Of a stretch of 64,000 nucleotides of DNA, positions 12,024-64,000 are shown in pieces. Under the pieces are notes generated by a model. The model was not told the DNA's origin and made no database searches. It was given only the letters and a program-made list of their open reading frames with translations. The position numbers were made by a program, and so were the translations under genes. The DNA is from Escherichia phage vB_EcoM_D4, in the sequence record PP886228. One strand, given 5' to 3'. Position 1 is the stretch's first letter. Each line of letters begins with the position of its first letter.

Positions 12024-14561
12024 ATGGCAGATTACAAATTGAGTCAGTTAAACTCAATCGACACAATTCGTTCAGAAGACCTATTGCACATCAGAGTTAA
12101 GAAAAGACCTGAAATGTTGGGTGACGAAGACCGTAGAATGACCTATCAAGACTTCTTAGCATCTTTTAAACTTGAAAGATTTGTTCAGATTGCTGGTAGT
12201 ACTATGACAGGTGACTTAGGGATTGTTAAGTTACTTTATGGTGGTAAGGCAGTATTTGACCCAACAGGCTCTTCTGAGGTTACTATTGGGGATATTTTAA
12301 AGACTTTTAAAATTAATTCAAATGGGCTTAAACTCACTATTGCAGATGCCACAAGGTCGGCAACTGTTTATCATACTTTGAACAAACCAAGCCCTAATGA
12401 ACTTGGCATGAGAACTAATGAAGAGAATGATGCAAGATATGCAAGGCTTGCTGTTACAAACACATTCTCTGGAACTCAGAACATTCAAGGTGATGCTAAC
12501 TTACTTCGCCTTAGAAACCGAAATGCAAACAATGCACAATACATTGAAGGTGTAAACCTAGATGGTTCAGCTAGATGGTGGGTTGGTATTGGTAGCAATG
12601 GTTCTGACGAAGTAAAACTGTACAATAACAAATACAACTCAGTCTTGACTGTTGCAAGTAATATCTCTGTTAATAAATCTTTAGCAATCACTGGACAAGT
12701 TCAACCTTCAGATTTCTCTAACTTAGATGCTAGATACTTCACTCAGACAGTTGCTAATCAGAGATTTGCACAGTTAGCTGGCAATAATACTTTTACAGGT
12801 GCTAACACTTTCACTAGCCTTGTTGTTAAGAAGAATGCTAATGCTATTACTTTGCAGAATACTGATACAAGTACAGCACTTTACATTCTCGGTAAGAAGT
12901 CTGATGGAACAAATAAATGGTATGTTGGTACAGATTCTGACGAGACACGTCTGAACATTTATAACTACCTTACAGGTTCACAGGTTTCACTAGGTACTAC
13001 TATTGGTATCAATAAGACTGTGCAAATCACTGGACAAGTTCAACCTTCGGATTGGGCTAATATCGATTCTAGATATATTCCGGCAGCAACATTAAGTACG
13101 ATTGCAAGAACTAATGCTGCTAATACATTCTCTGCACAACAGGTTATCAACGCTGATGGTGAAGCTCTTGCGTTAAAAGCAAAAACTGCAACGTCATTAT
13201 TTATTAGAGGTAAGGATGTTGATGGAACCAGCAAGTGGTATGTTGGTAATGGTGATGCCAGTGATATCTTAAACCTGTATAACTACAAGACAGGTAAAGG
13301 GCTTAACATTGGTTCAGTATTTGAAATGAATGCAACTTTAGCAATCACTGGACAAGTTCAACCTTCTGATTGGGCTAATATTGATGCAAGATACTTTACG
13401 CAAAGTGCTAGTGATGGTAGATACCTGAGAGTCAGAAGTACTGGCTTCAATAATGGAAACGTTGAAAAGTGGGCTAAAATTGCTACTGTCGTTATGCCGC
13501 AATCCGCATCTACTGCGGTGATTGAAGTGTTTGGTGGGTCTGGTTTTAATGTTAACGCACCACACCAAGCAGGTAAGTGTGAGATTATTTTACGAACATC
13601 AAACAATAACCCAAAGGGTTTAAATGTTGTAGCTTGGAGAACCGCAGAGAATACCATTGTCACAGATATTGGTTATGTTAACACATCTGGCGACACTTAT
13701 GATATTTACTGTAGGGTCGGTACGTACCAAAATGGTACAACATCAAGAGTTCAATCTTCTAGCAATGCAAGTGTGCAGCTATTTGAAGTCCCACAAACGT
13801 TTGATGATGCCCCACAAGGTATTGTGAAGGGTACAATTGCAAAATACTACACAAGTTTGCAAAAGCCAACCCCTTCAGATATCGGTGCATATACTAAAGC
13901 TGAAACTGACCAGAAAATTGCAGAAGCAATCAGTGACTCTACAGACCTGAATAAAATCTATCCAGTCGGTATTGTGACGTGGTTTAACAGTAATGTTAAC
14001 CCTAATACAGCACTTCCTGGTCTAACTTGGACGTACCTGAACAATGGTGTTGGCAGAACTATTAGAATTGCAGCAGCAAATGGCTCAGATGTTGCTACAA
14101 CTGGTGGTTCAGACTCTGTAACGTTATCTGTTGGTAACTTACCTTCACACACGCATAGTTTCTCTGCTACCACTTCATCATTTGATTATGGTACTAAGAC
14201 TTCTAGCACAACTGGTAACCATAACCACAACAGGGGGACTATGGAGATTACTGGTACAGTAGGTTACTTCAGAAGTGATTCTAGCAGCTTCTACACAGCA
14301 AGTGGTGCATTCACACTTGGTAGTTCAACTGCTTCTAAAGGTTTTACTGGTTCTAACTTCACTTATGGTATCCCTGCTAACTTCAATGCGTCAAGAACTT
14401 GGTCTGGTGTAACGAATACAACAGGTAACCACAGCCACACTGTTGGTATTGGTGCTCACAGCCACACAGTTAGCGGTAACACAGGTGGTACTGGTTCTGG
14501 TTCAGCATTTAGTGTTACTAACCAGTTCTACAAGTTAATGGCTTGGGTAAGAACTGCTTAA
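12024..14561 (+). CDS. long tail fibre protein
   Basis: Start moved to ATG 12024 (MADYKLSQ); three tandem repeats of about 115 aa each ending ITGQVQPSDWANIDARYFTQ; C-terminal HxH-rich domain ending AWVRTA like previous gene. Confidence 0.6.
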   Translation: MADYKLSQLNSIDTIRSEDLLHIRVKKRPEMLGDEDRRMTYQDFLASFKLERFVQIAGSTMTGDLGIVKLLYGGKAVFDPTGSSEVTIGDILKTFKINSNGLKLTIADATRSATVYHTLNKPSPNELGMRTNEENDARYARLAVTNTFSGTQNIQGDANLLRLRNRNANNAQYIEGVNLDGSARWWVGIGSNGSDEVKLYNNKYNSVLTVASNISVNKSLAITGQVQPSDFSNLDARYFTQTVANQRFAQLAGNNTFTGANTFTSLVVKKNANAITLQNTDTSTALYILGKKSDGTNKWYVGTDSDETRLNIYNYLTGSQVSLGTTIGINKTVQITGQVQPSDWANIDSRYIPAATLSTIARTNAANTFSAQQVINADGEALALKAKTATSLFIRGKDVDGTSKWYVGNGDASDILNLYNYKTGKGLNIGSVFEMNATLAITGQVQPSDWANIDARYFTQSASDGRYLRVRSTGFNNGNVEKWAKIATVVMPQSASTAVIEVFGGSGFNVNAPHQAGKCEIILRTSNNNPKGLNVVAWRTAENTIVTDIGYVNTSGDTYDIYCRVGTYQNGTTSRVQSSSNASVQLFEVPQTFDDAPQGIVKGTIAKYYTSLQKPTPSDIGAYTKAETDQKIAEAISDSTDLNKIYPVGIVTWFNSNVNPNTALPGLTWTYLNNGVGRTIRIAAANGSDVATTGGSDSVTLSVGNLPSHTHSFSATTSSFDYGTKTSSTTGNHNHNRGTMEITGTVGYFRSDSSSFYTASGAFTLGSSTASKGFTGSNFTYGIPANFNASRTWSGVTNTTGNHSHTVGIGAHSHTVSGNTGGTGSGSAFSVTNQFYKLMAWVRTA

Positions 14562-23301: not shown

Positions 23302-26001
23302 TTAGTGTACTTCAAGCCAGCTTTTACCAACCTTACCAGTACCTGTTACAAGTGTTTCTTTCTTAAGACCTAAGTTCTTAGAAGCTTGCCCATAATACCA
23401 GTCAGTAACTGCTTTCACTTCTGCCGTCATACTTTCTGGACATTCCCAACTCGTTTCATCGTGATATGCGCAGAGCAAGCGAGCACCAATAGCTGGTTGA
23501 CGACCATTCAACTTCATCAAACCTTCGTCAATCATACGACGACAAGCAAGGTTAATTGCCTCATTTTGAATCTGAGCCTCTGAACCCATCAAAAGATAGT
23601 TCAACAGTTTGTGTGGAGATTTACACCACAACCAAGCTCCAGCAACCTTTACAAAACCCCCTTTAGAGATTGCAGCAGTCTTACCAAACACCTCTTCAAG
23701 TGCTTTTTTAGTCGCTTTGTAGTCAGCTTCCAAGTCATCAAGCAGCTTCTTAATTTTAGGCAAACGAATAAAGTAAGTCTGTTTAGTCAGTGCACCTTCC
23801 TGAGTAGTTGCAGCTTTAATCGTCTTAGCAAACTTCTCATCACCTGCACCGAACAGCAGTGCATAGATACCATTCTTAGCTTTCTTACGACCCTTACTAA
23901 TCTCATGAAGAAGATTCTCATCCTGAGTAGCTCGGCAAGTCAAGATATCCTGCTCATCATTCAAGCTAAAGTAAATACTGTTCAGTGTGTGTGCATCAGT
24001 CCCTGAATAGACAACGTAAAGGTCATTCTCAGAGTCATAGCGTAGGTACTTATCAATCTCTGGATTGAGGTACTCATCAAAGTGTTTGCAGTAATAGCGT
24101 CCATCTTCTTGACGAATAAACTCAATCTCTTCTTTACCTTGCGTTACCGCTTTGGTGAAGTCTTTGTCACCCATAAAGTTACAAAGAAGAACTAGCTGGG
24201 CTGAGTTCATGTCTACAGAGACAACGTTAGTACCTTCTTCACAAATCCACACTGCCCTCATTGGTTCCCCATAGACAGCAGCACCAGACGGTACGTTTAC
24301 AATACCATACTGTGTCATACGCCCAGTTGAAGTACCAAATACCATTGCACCAGCACTAAGGCGACCATCAGGACGAATCTGGTTCAGCCAACCTTTTTCA
24401 TCATCCTTTGAGTTCTCAATAGTTCTGCGTCGGTGCATCAAAGTATAGTACTTAGCAATCTTCTGTCCAAGCTCACCTTCAATCGTATCATAAGATGATT
24501 CAGTAAGCTTTGGTGAAGTCCTAATCAGACAAGGTTCAAGTAAATCTGTGTACTTCTTCACAGACCAGTTATGCTCAATGTACTGGACACCTTCATGTTC
24601 AACATAACTCAACCCACACCGTTCAACCATCTCCTGCCACTTAGGATGCTTTGTAATCATCTTTTTGTTGTCTTTGAAACGACAAACTTTGACAGGGCGA
24701 CCGTCTGAATCTTTCTTGTAGTTCCAGTCATCTGGAATCCAACCAACTGATTTCAAATAGTCTTTAACAACTGCTACCTGAGTCATACGAGAAACTTCGA
24801 ACTCAATTGGTGTATATGGTGCATCAATCAAACCTGTGTAGCGACTTGACTCAAGCTCAAAGTGGTTAACAACATGGCTGTTATAGTACTTCACAGTTTT
24901 AACTGTTTTTACTGGCTTCCAATCTTTGCATTTCTTACCAATCTTTGCATTCAACTCATTGCAAATTGCACGAGCATCCTTCATTGCTACAAAACCTTCC
25001 TTGTACTCTTCACCAGTTACAGAGTTGGTTGGTGTATAGCAATTCCGCTTTTCAATGTTAAAAATCTTTGTAGTTGGCTTACCAAATGGCTTGATTTCAT
25101 ATGTCTGCATCTCACCGTTACGTACCTGCTGACGATACTTTGTCTTAGGGTACTTGGTAATTCTCTTCAATCCATCTGCATGCCCGAATGCTTCAACATA
25201 CTCATTCCAAGCTTTTGCAAACTCTTCTCCAGTGACTTTACCTTTGGTCTTAATAGTTGGTGGAAGGTGTGGTTCAACTTCTGAAGCAAGCTCATTAGTC
25301 AACTTGTCAAGTTCCTTTACATGAAACTCCATAAGTTCTTTATCAGCTTTCCAACCATTGATAGCTTGTTGACTCATCCAGAAAGATGTTTCTTTAGCTC
25401 GCATGTAGGTTTCATAAGTATCTACGCCACACTTCTTCAGCTTGAGATATTCATTATCCAGTGCGCGTTTAGTTTTGGCGTTAATACGGATATCTTCTAC
25501 AACACGAGTGAAGATTTCTGCATTCCACACACCCCAATGTTCAATCTCTGGTTTACGTACACCAACACGAGCACCCCATGCTGCCAAGCCATGAGCGCCT
25601 TTATAGCCTTTTGGAGTTGGTCTATCCATCCACTGAACACGAGACTGGATAAGAGAATCCTGAAAGAAATTACTCCACGGCTTACACTTTGGATTATCAA
25701 AGTTCCACAAATCAGGTGCAATGTGATTGAAAACCCACCAGTCATATCCCAGACCATTATGGATGCAAAGTCGTTTTGCCTTTAACGCAAACTCAACACC
25801 TTCACGCAAGCCACCCTTAATGTACTTGGTATACTTGTGACCGAGGATAGGTTCATCTGTAAAGACCCATACAGGCGGCTCTTCATCGTCAGATTTATAG
25901 TCTGCGAAAGCCATTACGTGCACTTTAGTGAACTCAAGGAGTAAACCATCAGTTTCTGTATCACCAACTAAATGTAAGTTTTTAAAATCTACGTTTTCCA
26001 T
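23302..26001 (-). CDS. DNA polymerase, family A (Pol I-like) with 3'-5' exonuclease
   Basis: Exo motif DTETDGL; polymerase motifs RKKAKNGIYALLFG (motif B-like) and YHDE (motif C); start set at ATG 26001 (MENVDF) with SD gagggag. Confidence 0.8.
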   Translation of the reverse strand: MENVDFKNLHLVGDTETDGLLLEFTKVHVMAFADYKSDDEEPPVWVFTDEPILGHKYTKYIKGGLREGVEFALKAKRLCIHNGLGYDWWVFNHIAPDLWNFDNPKCKPWSNFFQDSLIQSRVQWMDRPTPKGYKGAHGLAAWGARVGVRKPEIEHWGVWNAEIFTRVVEDIRINAKTKRALDNEYLKLKKCGVDTYETYMRAKETSFWMSQQAINGWKADKELMEFHVKELDKLTNELASEVEPHLPPTIKTKGKVTGEEFAKAWNEYVEAFGHADGLKRITKYPKTKYRQQVRNGEMQTYEIKPFGKPTTKIFNIEKRNCYTPTNSVTGEEYKEGFVAMKDARAICNELNAKIGKKCKDWKPVKTVKTVKYYNSHVVNHFELESSRYTGLIDAPYTPIEFEVSRMTQVAVVKDYLKSVGWIPDDWNYKKDSDGRPVKVCRFKDNKKMITKHPKWQEMVERCGLSYVEHEGVQYIEHNWSVKKYTDLLEPCLIRTSPKLTESSYDTIEGELGQKIAKYYTLMHRRRTIENSKDDEKGWLNQIRPDGRLSAGAMVFGTSTGRMTQYGIVNVPSGAAVYGEPMRAVWICEEGTNVVSVDMNSAQLVLLCNFMGDKDFTKAVTQGKEEIEFIRQEDGRYYCKHFDEYLNPEIDKYLRYDSENDLYVVYSGTDAHTLNSIYFSLNDEQDILTCRATQDENLLHEISKGRKKAKNGIYALLFGAGDEKFAKTIKAATTQEGALTKQTYFIRLPKIKKLLDDLEADYKATKKALEEVFGKTAAISKGGFVKVAGAWLWCKSPHKLLNYLLMGSEAQIQNEAINLACRRMIDEGLMKLNGRQPAIGARLLCAYHDETSWECPESMTAEVKAVTDWYYGQASKNLGLKKETLVTGTGKVGKSWLEVH

Positions 26002-56917: not shown

Positions 56918-57298
56918 ATGGCTTATCGTGCACCTAAATTCATCAACAAAGACAACTTTCGCAACGTACTGGAGAAGGCACTTGATGAAAAATTTAACGG
57001 TAAAATAATTGTTGTTCATGCGTTCAATTTCAAGTATGATATCAACGGGAATAAAATCAACCATTACACGGCAACCATGTTAGATGGTACGCTATCAAGT
57101 GAAAAAGCCGTACTGAATGCACTGGCAGGACGTGGTAAAAACCTGATAAAATGCGATAAGAGACGTTATCAGGGCGGCGCATATGGTTACGATGATGCTG
57201 TTTACCATCTTGAAAATATGGGCTATTCAGTGGAAAAAGCTGGAATATCTCAAATAATCGGCAGTGACGGCTATGTGACAATTTTCAAAATTAACTGA
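56918..57298 (+). CDS. array gene 1, hypothetical
   Basis: Start at ATG following conserved ctaggagattcaaaaATG; 126 aa. Confidence 0.45.
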   Translation: MAYRAPKFINKDNFRNVLEKALDEKFNGKIIVVHAFNFKYDINGNKINHYTATMLDGTLSSEKAVLNALAGRGKNLIKCDKRRYQGGAYGYDDAVYHLENMGYSVEKAGISQIIGSDGYVTIFKIN

Positions 57299-57306
57299 TA
57301 AAGTAC

Positions 57307-57341
57307 TTTACAAGGGGCTTATAGTTCGATAAAGTAAGCCC
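57307..57341 (+). promoter_or_regulatory. class-B promoter/hairpin module
   Basis: TTTACA, 17-bp spacer, TAAAGT; palindrome ggggctta...taagcccc spans spacer and -10. Confidence 0.45.
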
Positions 57342-57386
57342 CAGATAAAGAGCTTTACCACTAAATCCTAAATTGGAGATTCTAAA

Positions 57387-57644
57387 ATGGCTATTATCAA
57401 AAACGTTGTAATTACTGCAAAAACTCGTGATGACGCTCGCATTATGGCTAAAAAGTTATGCGGGAAAGTGATTGACAACGGAAAAAAATCTGCTGTAAGA
57501 TGGGGCGTGAAAGCTGATAAGCAACTAACCTTAAAACGTAATTCAAGCAACCTTTTTAAAGGTGTGGAAACACTTGGTAAAGTGAACGTATTCACTAAGC
57601 AAGGTTATAAAATGCACTTATCATTAACTGGTAAATTAATCTGA
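57387..57644 (+). CDS. array gene 2, small basic protein
   Basis: 85 aa after conserved RBS. Confidence 0.45.
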   Translation: MAIIKNVVITAKTRDDARIMAKKLCGKVIDNGKKSAVRWGVKADKQLTLKRNSSNLFKGVETLGKVNVFTKQGYKMHLSLTGKLI

Positions 57645-58633: not shown

Positions 58634-58959
58634 TGACTGGTATCACTGCAATCATTGCCATTTTCGCGCTATATAAGGCATATAAAGCCTATAATCTAGC
58701 AAATAAGGCAATCACACAGCAGGTTAGCAATAGCCTTGTAGAAAGCTTTCTAGGGCGTCTCAGTGATGAGCAAATAAAGCGGTTAGAAATGAGCTTCAGA
58801 TTTCAATCGAGAACTTATCAAATCAGCGACATTTTCAAAGATGATTTTCAGCTTGTCGATGATTATAACTCCCTGATAAATGCTTTAAATATCAGTGACT
58901 TAAAAGACTATTACGCTGTAATTGTCCAAGAATTGAGCAAACGAAAAAATTTATCTTGA
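58627..58959 (+). CDS. array gene 5, membrane-anchored protein
   Basis: N-terminal TM helix GITAIIAIFALY; overlaps previous gene, no own promoter. Confidence 0.4.
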   Translation: MLMTGITAIIAIFALYKAYKAYNLANKAITQQVSNSLVESFLGRLSDEQIKRLEMSFRFQSRTYQISDIFKDDFQLVDDYNSLINALNISDLKDYYAVIVQELSKRKNLS

Positions 58960-59050: not shown

Positions 59051-59323
59051 ATGTATACTACTAACAATGGTCGCACTTTAAACGTAACCCTGCGCCACTA
59101 TGTGAACGGTGTAATGCACTTCGAGGATTTACAAGCTGAACAACATATACTAGATTGGCAACTTGCAGGACTCCAAAAAACTGCTACCGGATACGGGAAA
59201 AAGATTCCAACTAGCTGGAAAGTATACTACGAAGGACGTTTGCGCAGAATTTATCAAGATGTATGCAGCAATAGCGCATCAAGTTACATCATGGTAAAAG
59301 GTGAAAAATTACACTTAGCATAA
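59051..59323 (+). CDS. array gene 6, hypothetical
   Basis: 90 aa. Confidence 0.45.
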   Translation: MYTTNNGRTLNVTLRHYVNGVMHFEDLQAEQHILDWQLAGLQKTATGYGKKIPTSWKVYYEGRLRRIYQDVCSNSASSYIMVKGEKLHLA

Positions 59324-61138: not shown

Positions 61139-61480
61139 ATGGCTTATGTAACCGTAATTACCGACAAAGCTGGCTCATCTTGGTCAACTCAAGTAAGCGA
61201 TAAGATGTCACCTATGAAGTGCCTAAAATACTTTGAGCAATGGAACAAAGGCGAGGATGTCAGCCCCTTTCAAGTGATGCAGATTATCCATACAGATAAC
61301 GAAGGGAATAAAACTGTTTTGAATAGTGAGTACTACGCAACCCGATTTGAAACGAGATGTAAAGCAATGAAGCTTTTGCGTGAGTCTGGTTATTCTCATA
61401 TTGCCTCACTAATCTGGGATGACCTGCTAAAAAATCAGCGTATCAGCTATGTAAAACCTGAAAAAATATTCATCAGTTAA
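61139..61480 (+). CDS. array gene 11, hypothetical
   Basis: 113 aa. Confidence 0.45.
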   Translation: MAYVTVITDKAGSSWSTQVSDKMSPMKCLKYFEQWNKGEDVSPFQVMQIIHTDNEGNKTVLNSEYYATRFETRCKAMKLLRESGYSHIASLIWDDLLKNQRISYVKPEKIFIS

Positions 61481-61512
61481 TCAACAACTTACAAAAAACT
61501 TTTAAAAAGATG

Positions 61513-61580
61513 TTGACAATCCCTCTTGACATTGGTAACTTTGTTCGAGGGGGTTTATCTAAAAGGGATTAACTTAAAAG
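61513..61580 (+). promoter_or_regulatory. conserved element with tandem TTGACA boxes (second copy)
   Basis: TTGACAatccctcTTGACAttggtaactttgttcgaggggg; aligns with 26062-26130. Confidence 0.4.
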
Positions 61581-61608
61581 ATTCTTTATAGATAAACTTA
61601 AAAAATTG

Positions 61609-61668
61609 CTTGCAATCAACTATCAAAACAAGTAAATTACTAATCAACGGGAGGGATAACCCCCCCCC
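61609..61668 (+). promoter_or_regulatory. class-A promoter plus leader hairpin with poly-C
   Basis: TTGCAA, 17 bp, TAAATT, atcaacgggaggg ataa cccccccc. Confidence 0.5.
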
Positions 61669-61815
61669 ACTAAATAAAGTCCTTAAACTAGGAGATTCAA
61701 AAAATGAACAAGTTCAAAGCTATCAACTTCATTCGTTCCCCCCCCACTAAATAAAGTCCTTAAACTAGGAGATTCAAAAAATGAACAAGTTCAAAGCTAT
61801 CAACTTCATTCGTTC
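61661..61815 (+). repeat. tandem duplication (78 + 77 bp) of leader-RBS-start codon segment
   Basis: Segment from poly-C tract through ...atgaacaagttcaaagctatcaacttcattcgttc occurs twice back to back; copies differ by one C. Confidence 0.8.
61704..61754 (+). pseudogene. truncated 16-codon duplicate of array gene 12 start
   Basis: MNKFKAINFIRSPPTK then stop; created by the duplication. Confidence 0.5.
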
Positions 61816-62311
61816 AAATAGTGTTATGTCAAAGCCTGTTAAAGATACCTATGAATTTCGTTGCAATGGGGTGCATTTTGCAACCATTACCAAATCAGAA
61901 AACGGAGCTTATTACATCCATCGCCGTAATGTTGCAACCGTTGTTGTCTCTCACTTTATGCAAGCTGTCGCGGAACTTCTCCCGATGTTTTTAGGGCTTT
62001 ACTTGGATGAGTGTAAAAACGTTCACAATCACGTTAAAAACCTTTTAAACAGTTATAAAATGGCTTATGAACGTTCTATCAAGTCCTTAAACAAGTTTTA
62101 CAACGCACCTAAAAATACTGTATCAATGGCCTACGATGTAAATGGTGAGGCGGTGAGTCTCTTTGAAGTGGAAGAAATCAAGCTGCATGATTTACGCCCT
62201 AGCGGTGACTCTAAGACTCTCGGTGAAGGTTTAACGTTCAATATCAAGAACTTAGAGAAAACTTTAAAAGATATTGAAAAAGATATTGACGAGACAACCA
62301 AAAATCTGTAA
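61781..62311 (+). CDS. array gene 12, hypothetical
   Basis: 176 aa. Confidence 0.45.
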   Translation: MNKFKAINFIRSNSVMSKPVKDTYEFRCNGVHFATITKSENGAYYIHRRNVATVVVSHFMQAVAELLPMFLGLYLDECKNVHNHVKNLLNSYKMAYERSIKSLNKFYNAPKNTVSMAYDVNGEAVSLFEVEEIKLHDLRPSGDSKTLGEGLTFNIKNLEKTLKDIEKDIDETTKNL

Positions 62312-63413: not shown

Positions 63414-63433
63414 ATGCTAGCCCCCTTAACATT

Positions 63434-63515
63434 TTCTTAACAATTTCTTAACAACCCCTACATAGTTATGCTTGTTAGCAACTTGTTAGCCCCTTGTTAA
63501 ATCTCTGTTAAAACC
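63434..63515. repeat. convergent TGTTAAG-family iterons
   Basis: ttcttaaca x2 (inverted orientation) facing cttgttagc, cttgttagc, cttgttaaa, ctgttaaaa. Confidence 0.55.
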
Positions 63516-63715
63516 ACGTAAAAGCCTTGTAAGAGTCTTTAGCATAGCCTTTAAAGCCCCTGTAAAGCCCTATAAATAGCTTTCTGTATAGTTGGGGTGT
63601 AATTACTAGGGAGAGACTAAAAAGAGCTTATAAGGAGCTATAGAAAGCTTTTAAGAGGGCTATTTAAAAGGTCACTAAGAAAGGAAAGGGAACGATAAGA
63701 AAAGAGATAGTGACC

Positions 63716-64000
63716 ATGTTAATAGCTTGTTAAAAAGATTAAACACTTGTTAGGAACTTGTTAATTATCTTAACAAAATAACTCTTTAAAATTAACTTGT
63801 TAGCTCTTGTTAGTCATCTGTTAAGATTCTATAAAGACCATGTAGCAACTGTTAAGAAACTGTTACACCCTTGTTAGTTCTGTTAAGAATCTGTTAAGAC
63901 CTCTGAAGAGATGTTAAGAGGTTGTAAGAACTGTTAAGAGATTGTTAAGGATATTTTAAAATTCTGCAAAGGGGATGTTACAGGGATGTTAAGGGCTACC
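63716..64000 (+). repeat. direct iteron array, consensus YTGTTAAG at about 10-11 bp spacing (runs to window end)
   Basis: About 20 copies: cttgttag, cttgttaat, tctgttaag, actgttaag, gatgttaag, attgttaag, gatgttac ... Confidence 0.7.

Follow-up and report, generated by a model that had tools for sequence, protein, structure and literature searches.

The 64,000-nt stretch of DNA analyzed here (the window; Escherichia phage vB_EcoM_D4, PP886228) is Felixounavirus sequence. It is collinear with PP892526.1, the record of Escherichia phage vB_EcoM_I14.1 (89,359 bp), and ends where that record ends. Between window positions 57300 and 62710, 11 small early genes each have a leader module of one of two conserved families in front of them. 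A sequence-only reading of the same DNA had spoken of a cassette array with conserved modules, and this array was recovered here at 57.3 to 62.7 kb. On the plus strand, genes with a type A leader start at 59051, 59917, 61139, 61781, 62377, and 62707, and genes with a type B leader at 57387, 57735, 58337, 59409, and 60207. A type A module consists of a promoter-like element (TTGNNN-17 nt-TAAATT), a hairpin of the form GGGGAGG...CCTCCCC, an AGGAG motif, and the ATG, while the hairpin of type B modules reads GGGGCTTA...TAAGCCCC. Identity between copies of a module reaches 99% across approximately 99 nt. Of a 2-kb query from the early region, 82% also aligned at approximately 90% identity to GU169904.1, a 147-kb record named Staphylococcus phage SA1; judged from this match, the sequence suggests a chimeric or contaminated record.

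The cassette of interest is the type A cassette of the gene starting at 61781. At its upstream end, a promoter-like TTGCAA-17 nt-TAAATT element lies at 61610..61638 on the plus strand. It was found by regular expression and falls short of the cutoff used by the consensus scanner; a consensus promoter and terminator scan of 61400-61900 returned nothing at its thresholds. The same pattern, searched in the same way, is present in five of the six type A modules (at 58956, 59823, 61610, 62286, and 62615). We infer a promoter-like role for 61610..61638 from this conserved geometry in paralogous modules, together with annotations of ASO1A and AYO145A by other authors.

The element is followed by the leader hairpin, GGGAGGG-ATAA-C9, at 61649..61668 on the plus strand. 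In relatives and in the paralogous modules, the corresponding stem is a perfect GGGAGG/CCTCCC pairing. The 3' arm of the hairpin is a C9 homopolymer (61660..61668, plus strand), which is the only homopolymer of at least 8 nt, of any base, in the 89-kb genome. At the site of this tract, ten relatives and the paralogous modules carry CCTCCCC or a close variant (CCTCCCT in vB_EcoM_E9, CCTCCCCC in H12). The C9/C10 run is thus restricted to this lineage, and the predicted stem is weakened: the predicted energy is -10.5 kcal/mol here, compared with -12.3 kcal/mol for the leader of a relative (VpaE1 type) and -16.0 kcal/mol for the module before 62707. The tract is C9 in the window and C10 in PP892526.1 (87095-87104; assembled at 9.4x coverage), and a C8 form is implied by the graph vertex described below. 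The sequence-only reading had called this homopolymer a potential slipped-strand hotspot. A weaker form of that proposal stands, since the length does differ between assemblies (C9 versus C10, with C8 implied), a difference that on assemblies alone is inseparable from PCR or Illumina error.

The leader leads into a gene at 61781..62311 on the plus strand, which encodes a 176-aa protein of unknown function (PHROG 4725) and is kept across Felixounavirus with a single upstream leader. In the window, part of this leader and the beginning of the gene are present twice. The interval 61661-61815 is a perfect tandem repeat, for which TRF gave a period of 77, 2.0 copies, 100% matches, 0 indels, and a score of 310. 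In an exhaustive scan of periods from 15 to 400, it was the sole exact tandem run in the window. The raw letters and TRF agree on this point with the sequence-only reading, which had reported a perfect tandem duplication at 61661-61815 with a period of 77/78 bp and its junction in poly-C tracts of 8 and 7 C. The value of 77 is the true period and 78 is not; the matching run extends over 78 positions, that is, 77 plus one chance C after copy 2. Likewise, the poly-C junction was correct, while the tracts actually contain 9 C (61660-61668) and 8 C (61738-61745), the second when the C of ...CGTTC is included. The lower counts arose because the copy boundary had been placed one base later.

Copy 1 of the unit occupies 61661..61737 and runs from C8 through ACTAAAT to CATTCGTT; it is perfectly identical to 61738-61814 and is absent in PP892526.1. 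Copy 2 occupies 61738..61814 and is followed by the intact rest of the gene. As a 77-mer, the unit begins with CCCCCCCCACTAAAT and ends with CATTCGTT, and is composed of C8 plus 69 nt. The junction of the two copies reads ...CAACTTCATTCGTT on its left side and CCCCCCCCACTAAATAAAG on its right side, with a microhomology of 1 nt (C). The left end of the duplicated span lies inside the C tract and its right end 33 nt into unique coding sequence, at codon 11/12. Elsewhere in the window, the unit matches only leader segments of 39 to 40 nt.

The extra copy creates a 16-codon ORF at 61704..61754 on the plus strand, with its ATG at 61704 and the translation MNKFKAINFIRSPPTK followed by a stop. This is the truncated upstream copy of the gene start noted in the sequence-only reading, and the second ribosome-binding site and full gene reported downstream of it are likewise present, as a second AGGAG and the 176-aa ORF. 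The 16-codon ORF and the second ribosome-binding site are spurious.

Comparison with other genomes set the extra copy apart. Over all 64 kb, the window differs from PP892526.1 in three respects only: one single-nucleotide substitution, C9 in place of C10, and the additional 77 bp, the extra copy being missing from PP892526.1. The sole substitution, at window position 12111, is G in the window and A in I14.1. It gives E53 in the window and K53 in I14.1 in the tail fibre protein of 869 aa, and may reflect either a true variant of host range or a mistake in the assembly with 9.4x coverage. Related genomes, which had been proposed as a check on the duplication, did not share it: in an alignment of 12 sequences including the window, the locus was single copy in 11/11 other genomes (I14.1 and ten relatives). 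A 50-nt probe over the junction had no match in 50,697 phage records, and a 20-mer over the junction had none in IMG/VR or in metagenome contigs. The 20-mer did match one Bacteroidales metagenome-assembled genome, which was rejected as a chance hit, since its flanks are unrelated and approximately one chance match is expected in 596 Gb of bacterial genomes. Thus, no independent sequence with the junction was found among I14.1, the ten relatives, the phage records, IMG/VR, and the metagenomes.

For 150-bp reads, the largest default k of SPAdes is 77, which is exactly the period of the repeat. The genome announcement covers six phages, with paired 150-bp MiSeq reads as the data and SPAdes v3.15.5, run with its defaults, as the assembler (PMC11737134). 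After assembly, the genomes were rated "complete" by CheckV and polished with Pilon, and PhageTerm reported direct terminal repeats (PMC11737134). In the same announcement, vB_EcoM_D4 (PP886228; 89,439 bp; 93x) and I14.1 (89,359 bp; 9.4x) were given as 100% similar (PMC11737134). It has been reported elsewhere that SPAdes contigs of phages carry identical 77-bp sequences at both ends and that these have to be removed (PMC9409062).

The records also bear traces of handling after assembly. Positions 63420..64000 of the window are the right copy of a direct terminal repeat of 581 bp, which PP892526.1 carries at its beginning and, identically, at its end. Since this repeat stands at both ends of the record, the record is not a raw contig and was re-linearized and extended after assembly. 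Terminal repeats are present in the D4-like, I14.1, and E9 records and not in that of H12, which indicates that the records were processed by hand. The top-ranked matches of a literature search included no experimentally defined Felixounavirus termini. The terminal repeat (63420-64000) and the segment 63369-63414 are packed with direct repeats of 10 to 11 bp, such as CTTGTTAGC, CTGTTAAGA, and AAAGTTACGTA, which account for many TRF rows; by their sequence, these repeats at the genome terminus look like iteron or packaging-site arrays.

A second duplication of the same length was found in a genome from the same pipeline. The record of vB_EcoM_E9 (PP886229.1) contains its own perfect 77-bp duplication in 2.0 copies at 81523-81676, with a unit that starts with ATAAAGTACTTTACAAGGGG and ends with CCTAAATT. 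The two duplications lie at different sites: the window is single copy at 57298-57374, the homologue of the E9 site, and E9 is single copy at the site duplicated in the window. A de Bruijn graph at k = 77 was built from the single-copy, circularized E9 genome (87,040 bp). In this graph, 77-mers branch at only eight positions, and the duplicated unit is exactly one of the eight. It is a vertex of in-degree 2 with which an 85-nt exact repeat begins; this repeat is common to two leader modules and is found again at 82974. The chance of the unit falling on a branching vertex is approximately 1e-4, or about 1 in 10,000 placements. A SPAdes contig must begin at such a vertex, whereas a biological duplication has no reason to do so, and the position of the E9 unit therefore points to a SPAdes overlap. 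The duplication at 81523-81676 in E9 is almost certainly an artefact of the same kind as that proposed for the window.

The other records of the study were not uniform in this respect. H12 and I14.1, from the same paper, have no 77-bp duplication, which implies that the overlap was sometimes trimmed or not produced. T5-like I14 (PP892525.1, vB_EcoS_I14) has no duplication of period 77 either. At 24621-24826, I14 carries a perfect tandem duplication of 103 bp in two copies, among several shorter repeats of 21 to 28 bp; 103 is not a SPAdes k. In GenBank, the taxonomy of the two similarly named phages has apparently been swapped, I14.1 being filed under Demerecviridae/Tequintavirus and the T5-like I14 under Ounavirinae/Felixounavirus.

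The graph of the D4-like genome was analyzed in the same way. At k = 77, no exact repeat in this genome is of sufficient length to give a branching vertex, so that heterogeneity among the reads is the only possible anchor for the loop. The C tract, as the only homopolymer of at least 8 nt in the genome, is the site most prone to length errors from PCR or Illumina sequencing. When a C8 variant path was added to the graph (simulated C8/C9 bulge, k = 77), the vertex at which the paths converge was exactly the duplicated unit. A C10 variant alone would yield another unit, C9 plus 68 nt (simulated C9/C10 bulge). Because the bulge model itself predicts a junction in poly-C, slippage of DNA in the phage is not called for to explain where the repeat begins.

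In view of these results, we consider it highly probable (roughly 95%) that the extra 77 bp is an artefact of assembly and rotation, derived from the 77-base overlap of SPAdes contig ends, and not a rearrangement of the phage. This verdict rests on the equality of period and k, the documented pipeline, the absence of the duplication elsewhere, the vertex duplication in E9, and the re-linearization of the record. Several features of such an artefact were found together at this locus: a period equal to k, two identical adjacent copies, a re-linearized record, a unit that is a graph vertex, and absence from other sequences. An assembly artefact had been offered as a fallback by the sequence-only reading, and it is this fallback that the period, the sister assembly, and the E9 duplication favor. 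The true locus is one ordinary early-gene cassette, consisting of a promoter-like element, a 5' leader hairpin, a Shine-Dalgarno sequence, and the 176-aa gene.

The artefact probably arose as follows. The genome of the Felixounavirus phage vB_EcoM_D4 would have been assembled from 150-bp Illumina reads by default SPAdes with a largest k of 77, and the loop-closing genome would have been output as a single contig with the same k-mer vertex as its initial and its final 77 nt. The loop would have been anchored at the 77-mer composed of C8 plus 69 nt, where C8 reads and reads with C9 or longer rejoin. The contig would then have been re-cut at the PhageTerm terminus and given the 581-bp repeat, with the 77-nt overlap left untrimmed. 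Joining the former contig ends head to tail inside the new record would produce a perfect 77-bp tandem duplication, in which copy 1 would stem from the final 77 nt of the contig as written by SPAdes and copy 2 from its initial 77 nt. We infer the exact order of these processing steps. Pilon polishing at 93x left the 77-bp copy in place, as would be expected if polishing came before rotation.

A genuine recent 77-bp duplication in the phage population, arising through replication slippage or illegitimate recombination and having one of its ends in the C tract, would explain the same letters. The repeat is present in the sequence as given, and the assembly behind it has 93x coverage and was polished with Pilon. 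One endpoint lies in a homopolymer of differing length (C9 versus C10), and the junction has 1 nt of microhomology, but so short a homology does not exceed what chance would give, and the start of the unit coincides exactly with the C8 k-mer that the graph model predicts. Moreover, the length equals the k of the assembler exactly, the same pipeline produced a 77-bp duplication in E9 that is provably at a graph vertex, and the repeat is absent in the otherwise identical I14.1 and in all databases searched. We therefore regard a genuine duplication as very improbable. The same small weight is given to its fuller form, in which a hypermutable C8-C10 tract would have hosted a real duplication, the upstream ORF and second ribosome-binding site would belong to the phage, and 77 would equal k by coincidence. 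Accordingly, the description of the repeat as the footprint of a recent rearrangement was not upheld; its length, its absence in the sister assembly, and the vertex duplication in E9 all stand against that description.

Two further explanations carry even less weight. Arbiol et al. reportedly described in 2010 the PeSL (promoter-early stem-loop) regulatory cassettes of T4-type phages, and recombination between the leader modules of the early-gene array, resembling the shuffling of PeSL in those phages, might be thought to have duplicated the segment. Conserved modules do exist here, and the left end of the duplication is inside a type A module. However, this end lies in a C tract specific to the lineage, the right end is 33 nt into unique coding sequence, and the matches of the unit elsewhere in the window are confined to short leader segments. 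Had modules exchanged unequally, entire cassettes of at least 300 bp would have been gained or lost, not 77 bp, and every point against a genuine duplication applies here as well. Module-to-module recombination was rejected because of where the breakpoints lie, and we attach almost no probability to it; the claim that the duplication reveals the conserved modules as recombination or slippage substrates is not supported either, because its right end is in unique coding sequence (codon 11/12) and not in a module. An artefact introduced by another step, such as manual circularization, handling of the PhageTerm output, or miscorrection by Pilon, is about as hard to credit. The hand processing evident from terminal repeats in some records and not in H12 is in its favor, as is the perfect 103-bp repeat of I14, whose length is not a SPAdes k. 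Against it stand the exact value of 77 in two genomes and the identity of both units with vertices of the k = 77 graph; the later steps merely preserved an overlap that already existed.

The biological significance of the repeat is small, and its value lies in quality control. Two or more public Felixounavirus records from one study probably contain a spurious 77-bp insert, which in E9 is certain as a sequence feature and in vB_EcoM_D4 is deduced. The insert in the window makes the genome 77 bp longer, brings with it a false 16-codon ORF and a false second site for ribosome binding, and could be mistaken for evidence of module-driven rearrangement. A cheap general test follows from the two questions asked here, namely whether the period of a repeat equals k and whether its unit coincides with a vertex in the k-mer graph built from that genome, and could flag artefacts of this class in phage databases.

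The locus resembles several known systems to different degrees. As in the PeSL cassettes of T4-type phages, the array in the window places a promoter-like element, a GC-rich stem-loop, and a Shine-Dalgarno sequence before each small early gene. This likeness serves as context only, since the breakpoints of the duplication do not lie in two modules and there is no sign of module-mediated exchange. The C tract recalls the slipped-strand homopolymer tracts known as contingency tracts, in that C9-C10 length differs between assemblies of essentially one phage. Unlike those, it lies in a 5' leader hairpin and not in an ORF or a promoter spacer, and its variation is inseparable from PCR or sequencing error, one of the assemblies having 9.4x coverage.

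The closest parallels are with assembly products. The duplications in E9 and in the window share laboratory, pipeline, genus, period, perfection, location in the early-gene array, and a unit that is a vertex at k = 77. They differ in that the E9 duplication sits in a type B leader module, where an exact dispersed repeat of 85 nt begins, the source of the vertex being a genomic repeat in E9 and homopolymer-length heterogeneity in the reads for the window. The contig-end overlap described for SPAdes assemblies of phages (PMC9409062) has the same properties as the repeat in the window: 77 nt, identical, in two copies, and obtained from Illumina reads with SPAdes for a loop-closing phage genome. 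The difference is that the copies in the window are adjacent and internal, as would result from rotation of the contig without trimming.
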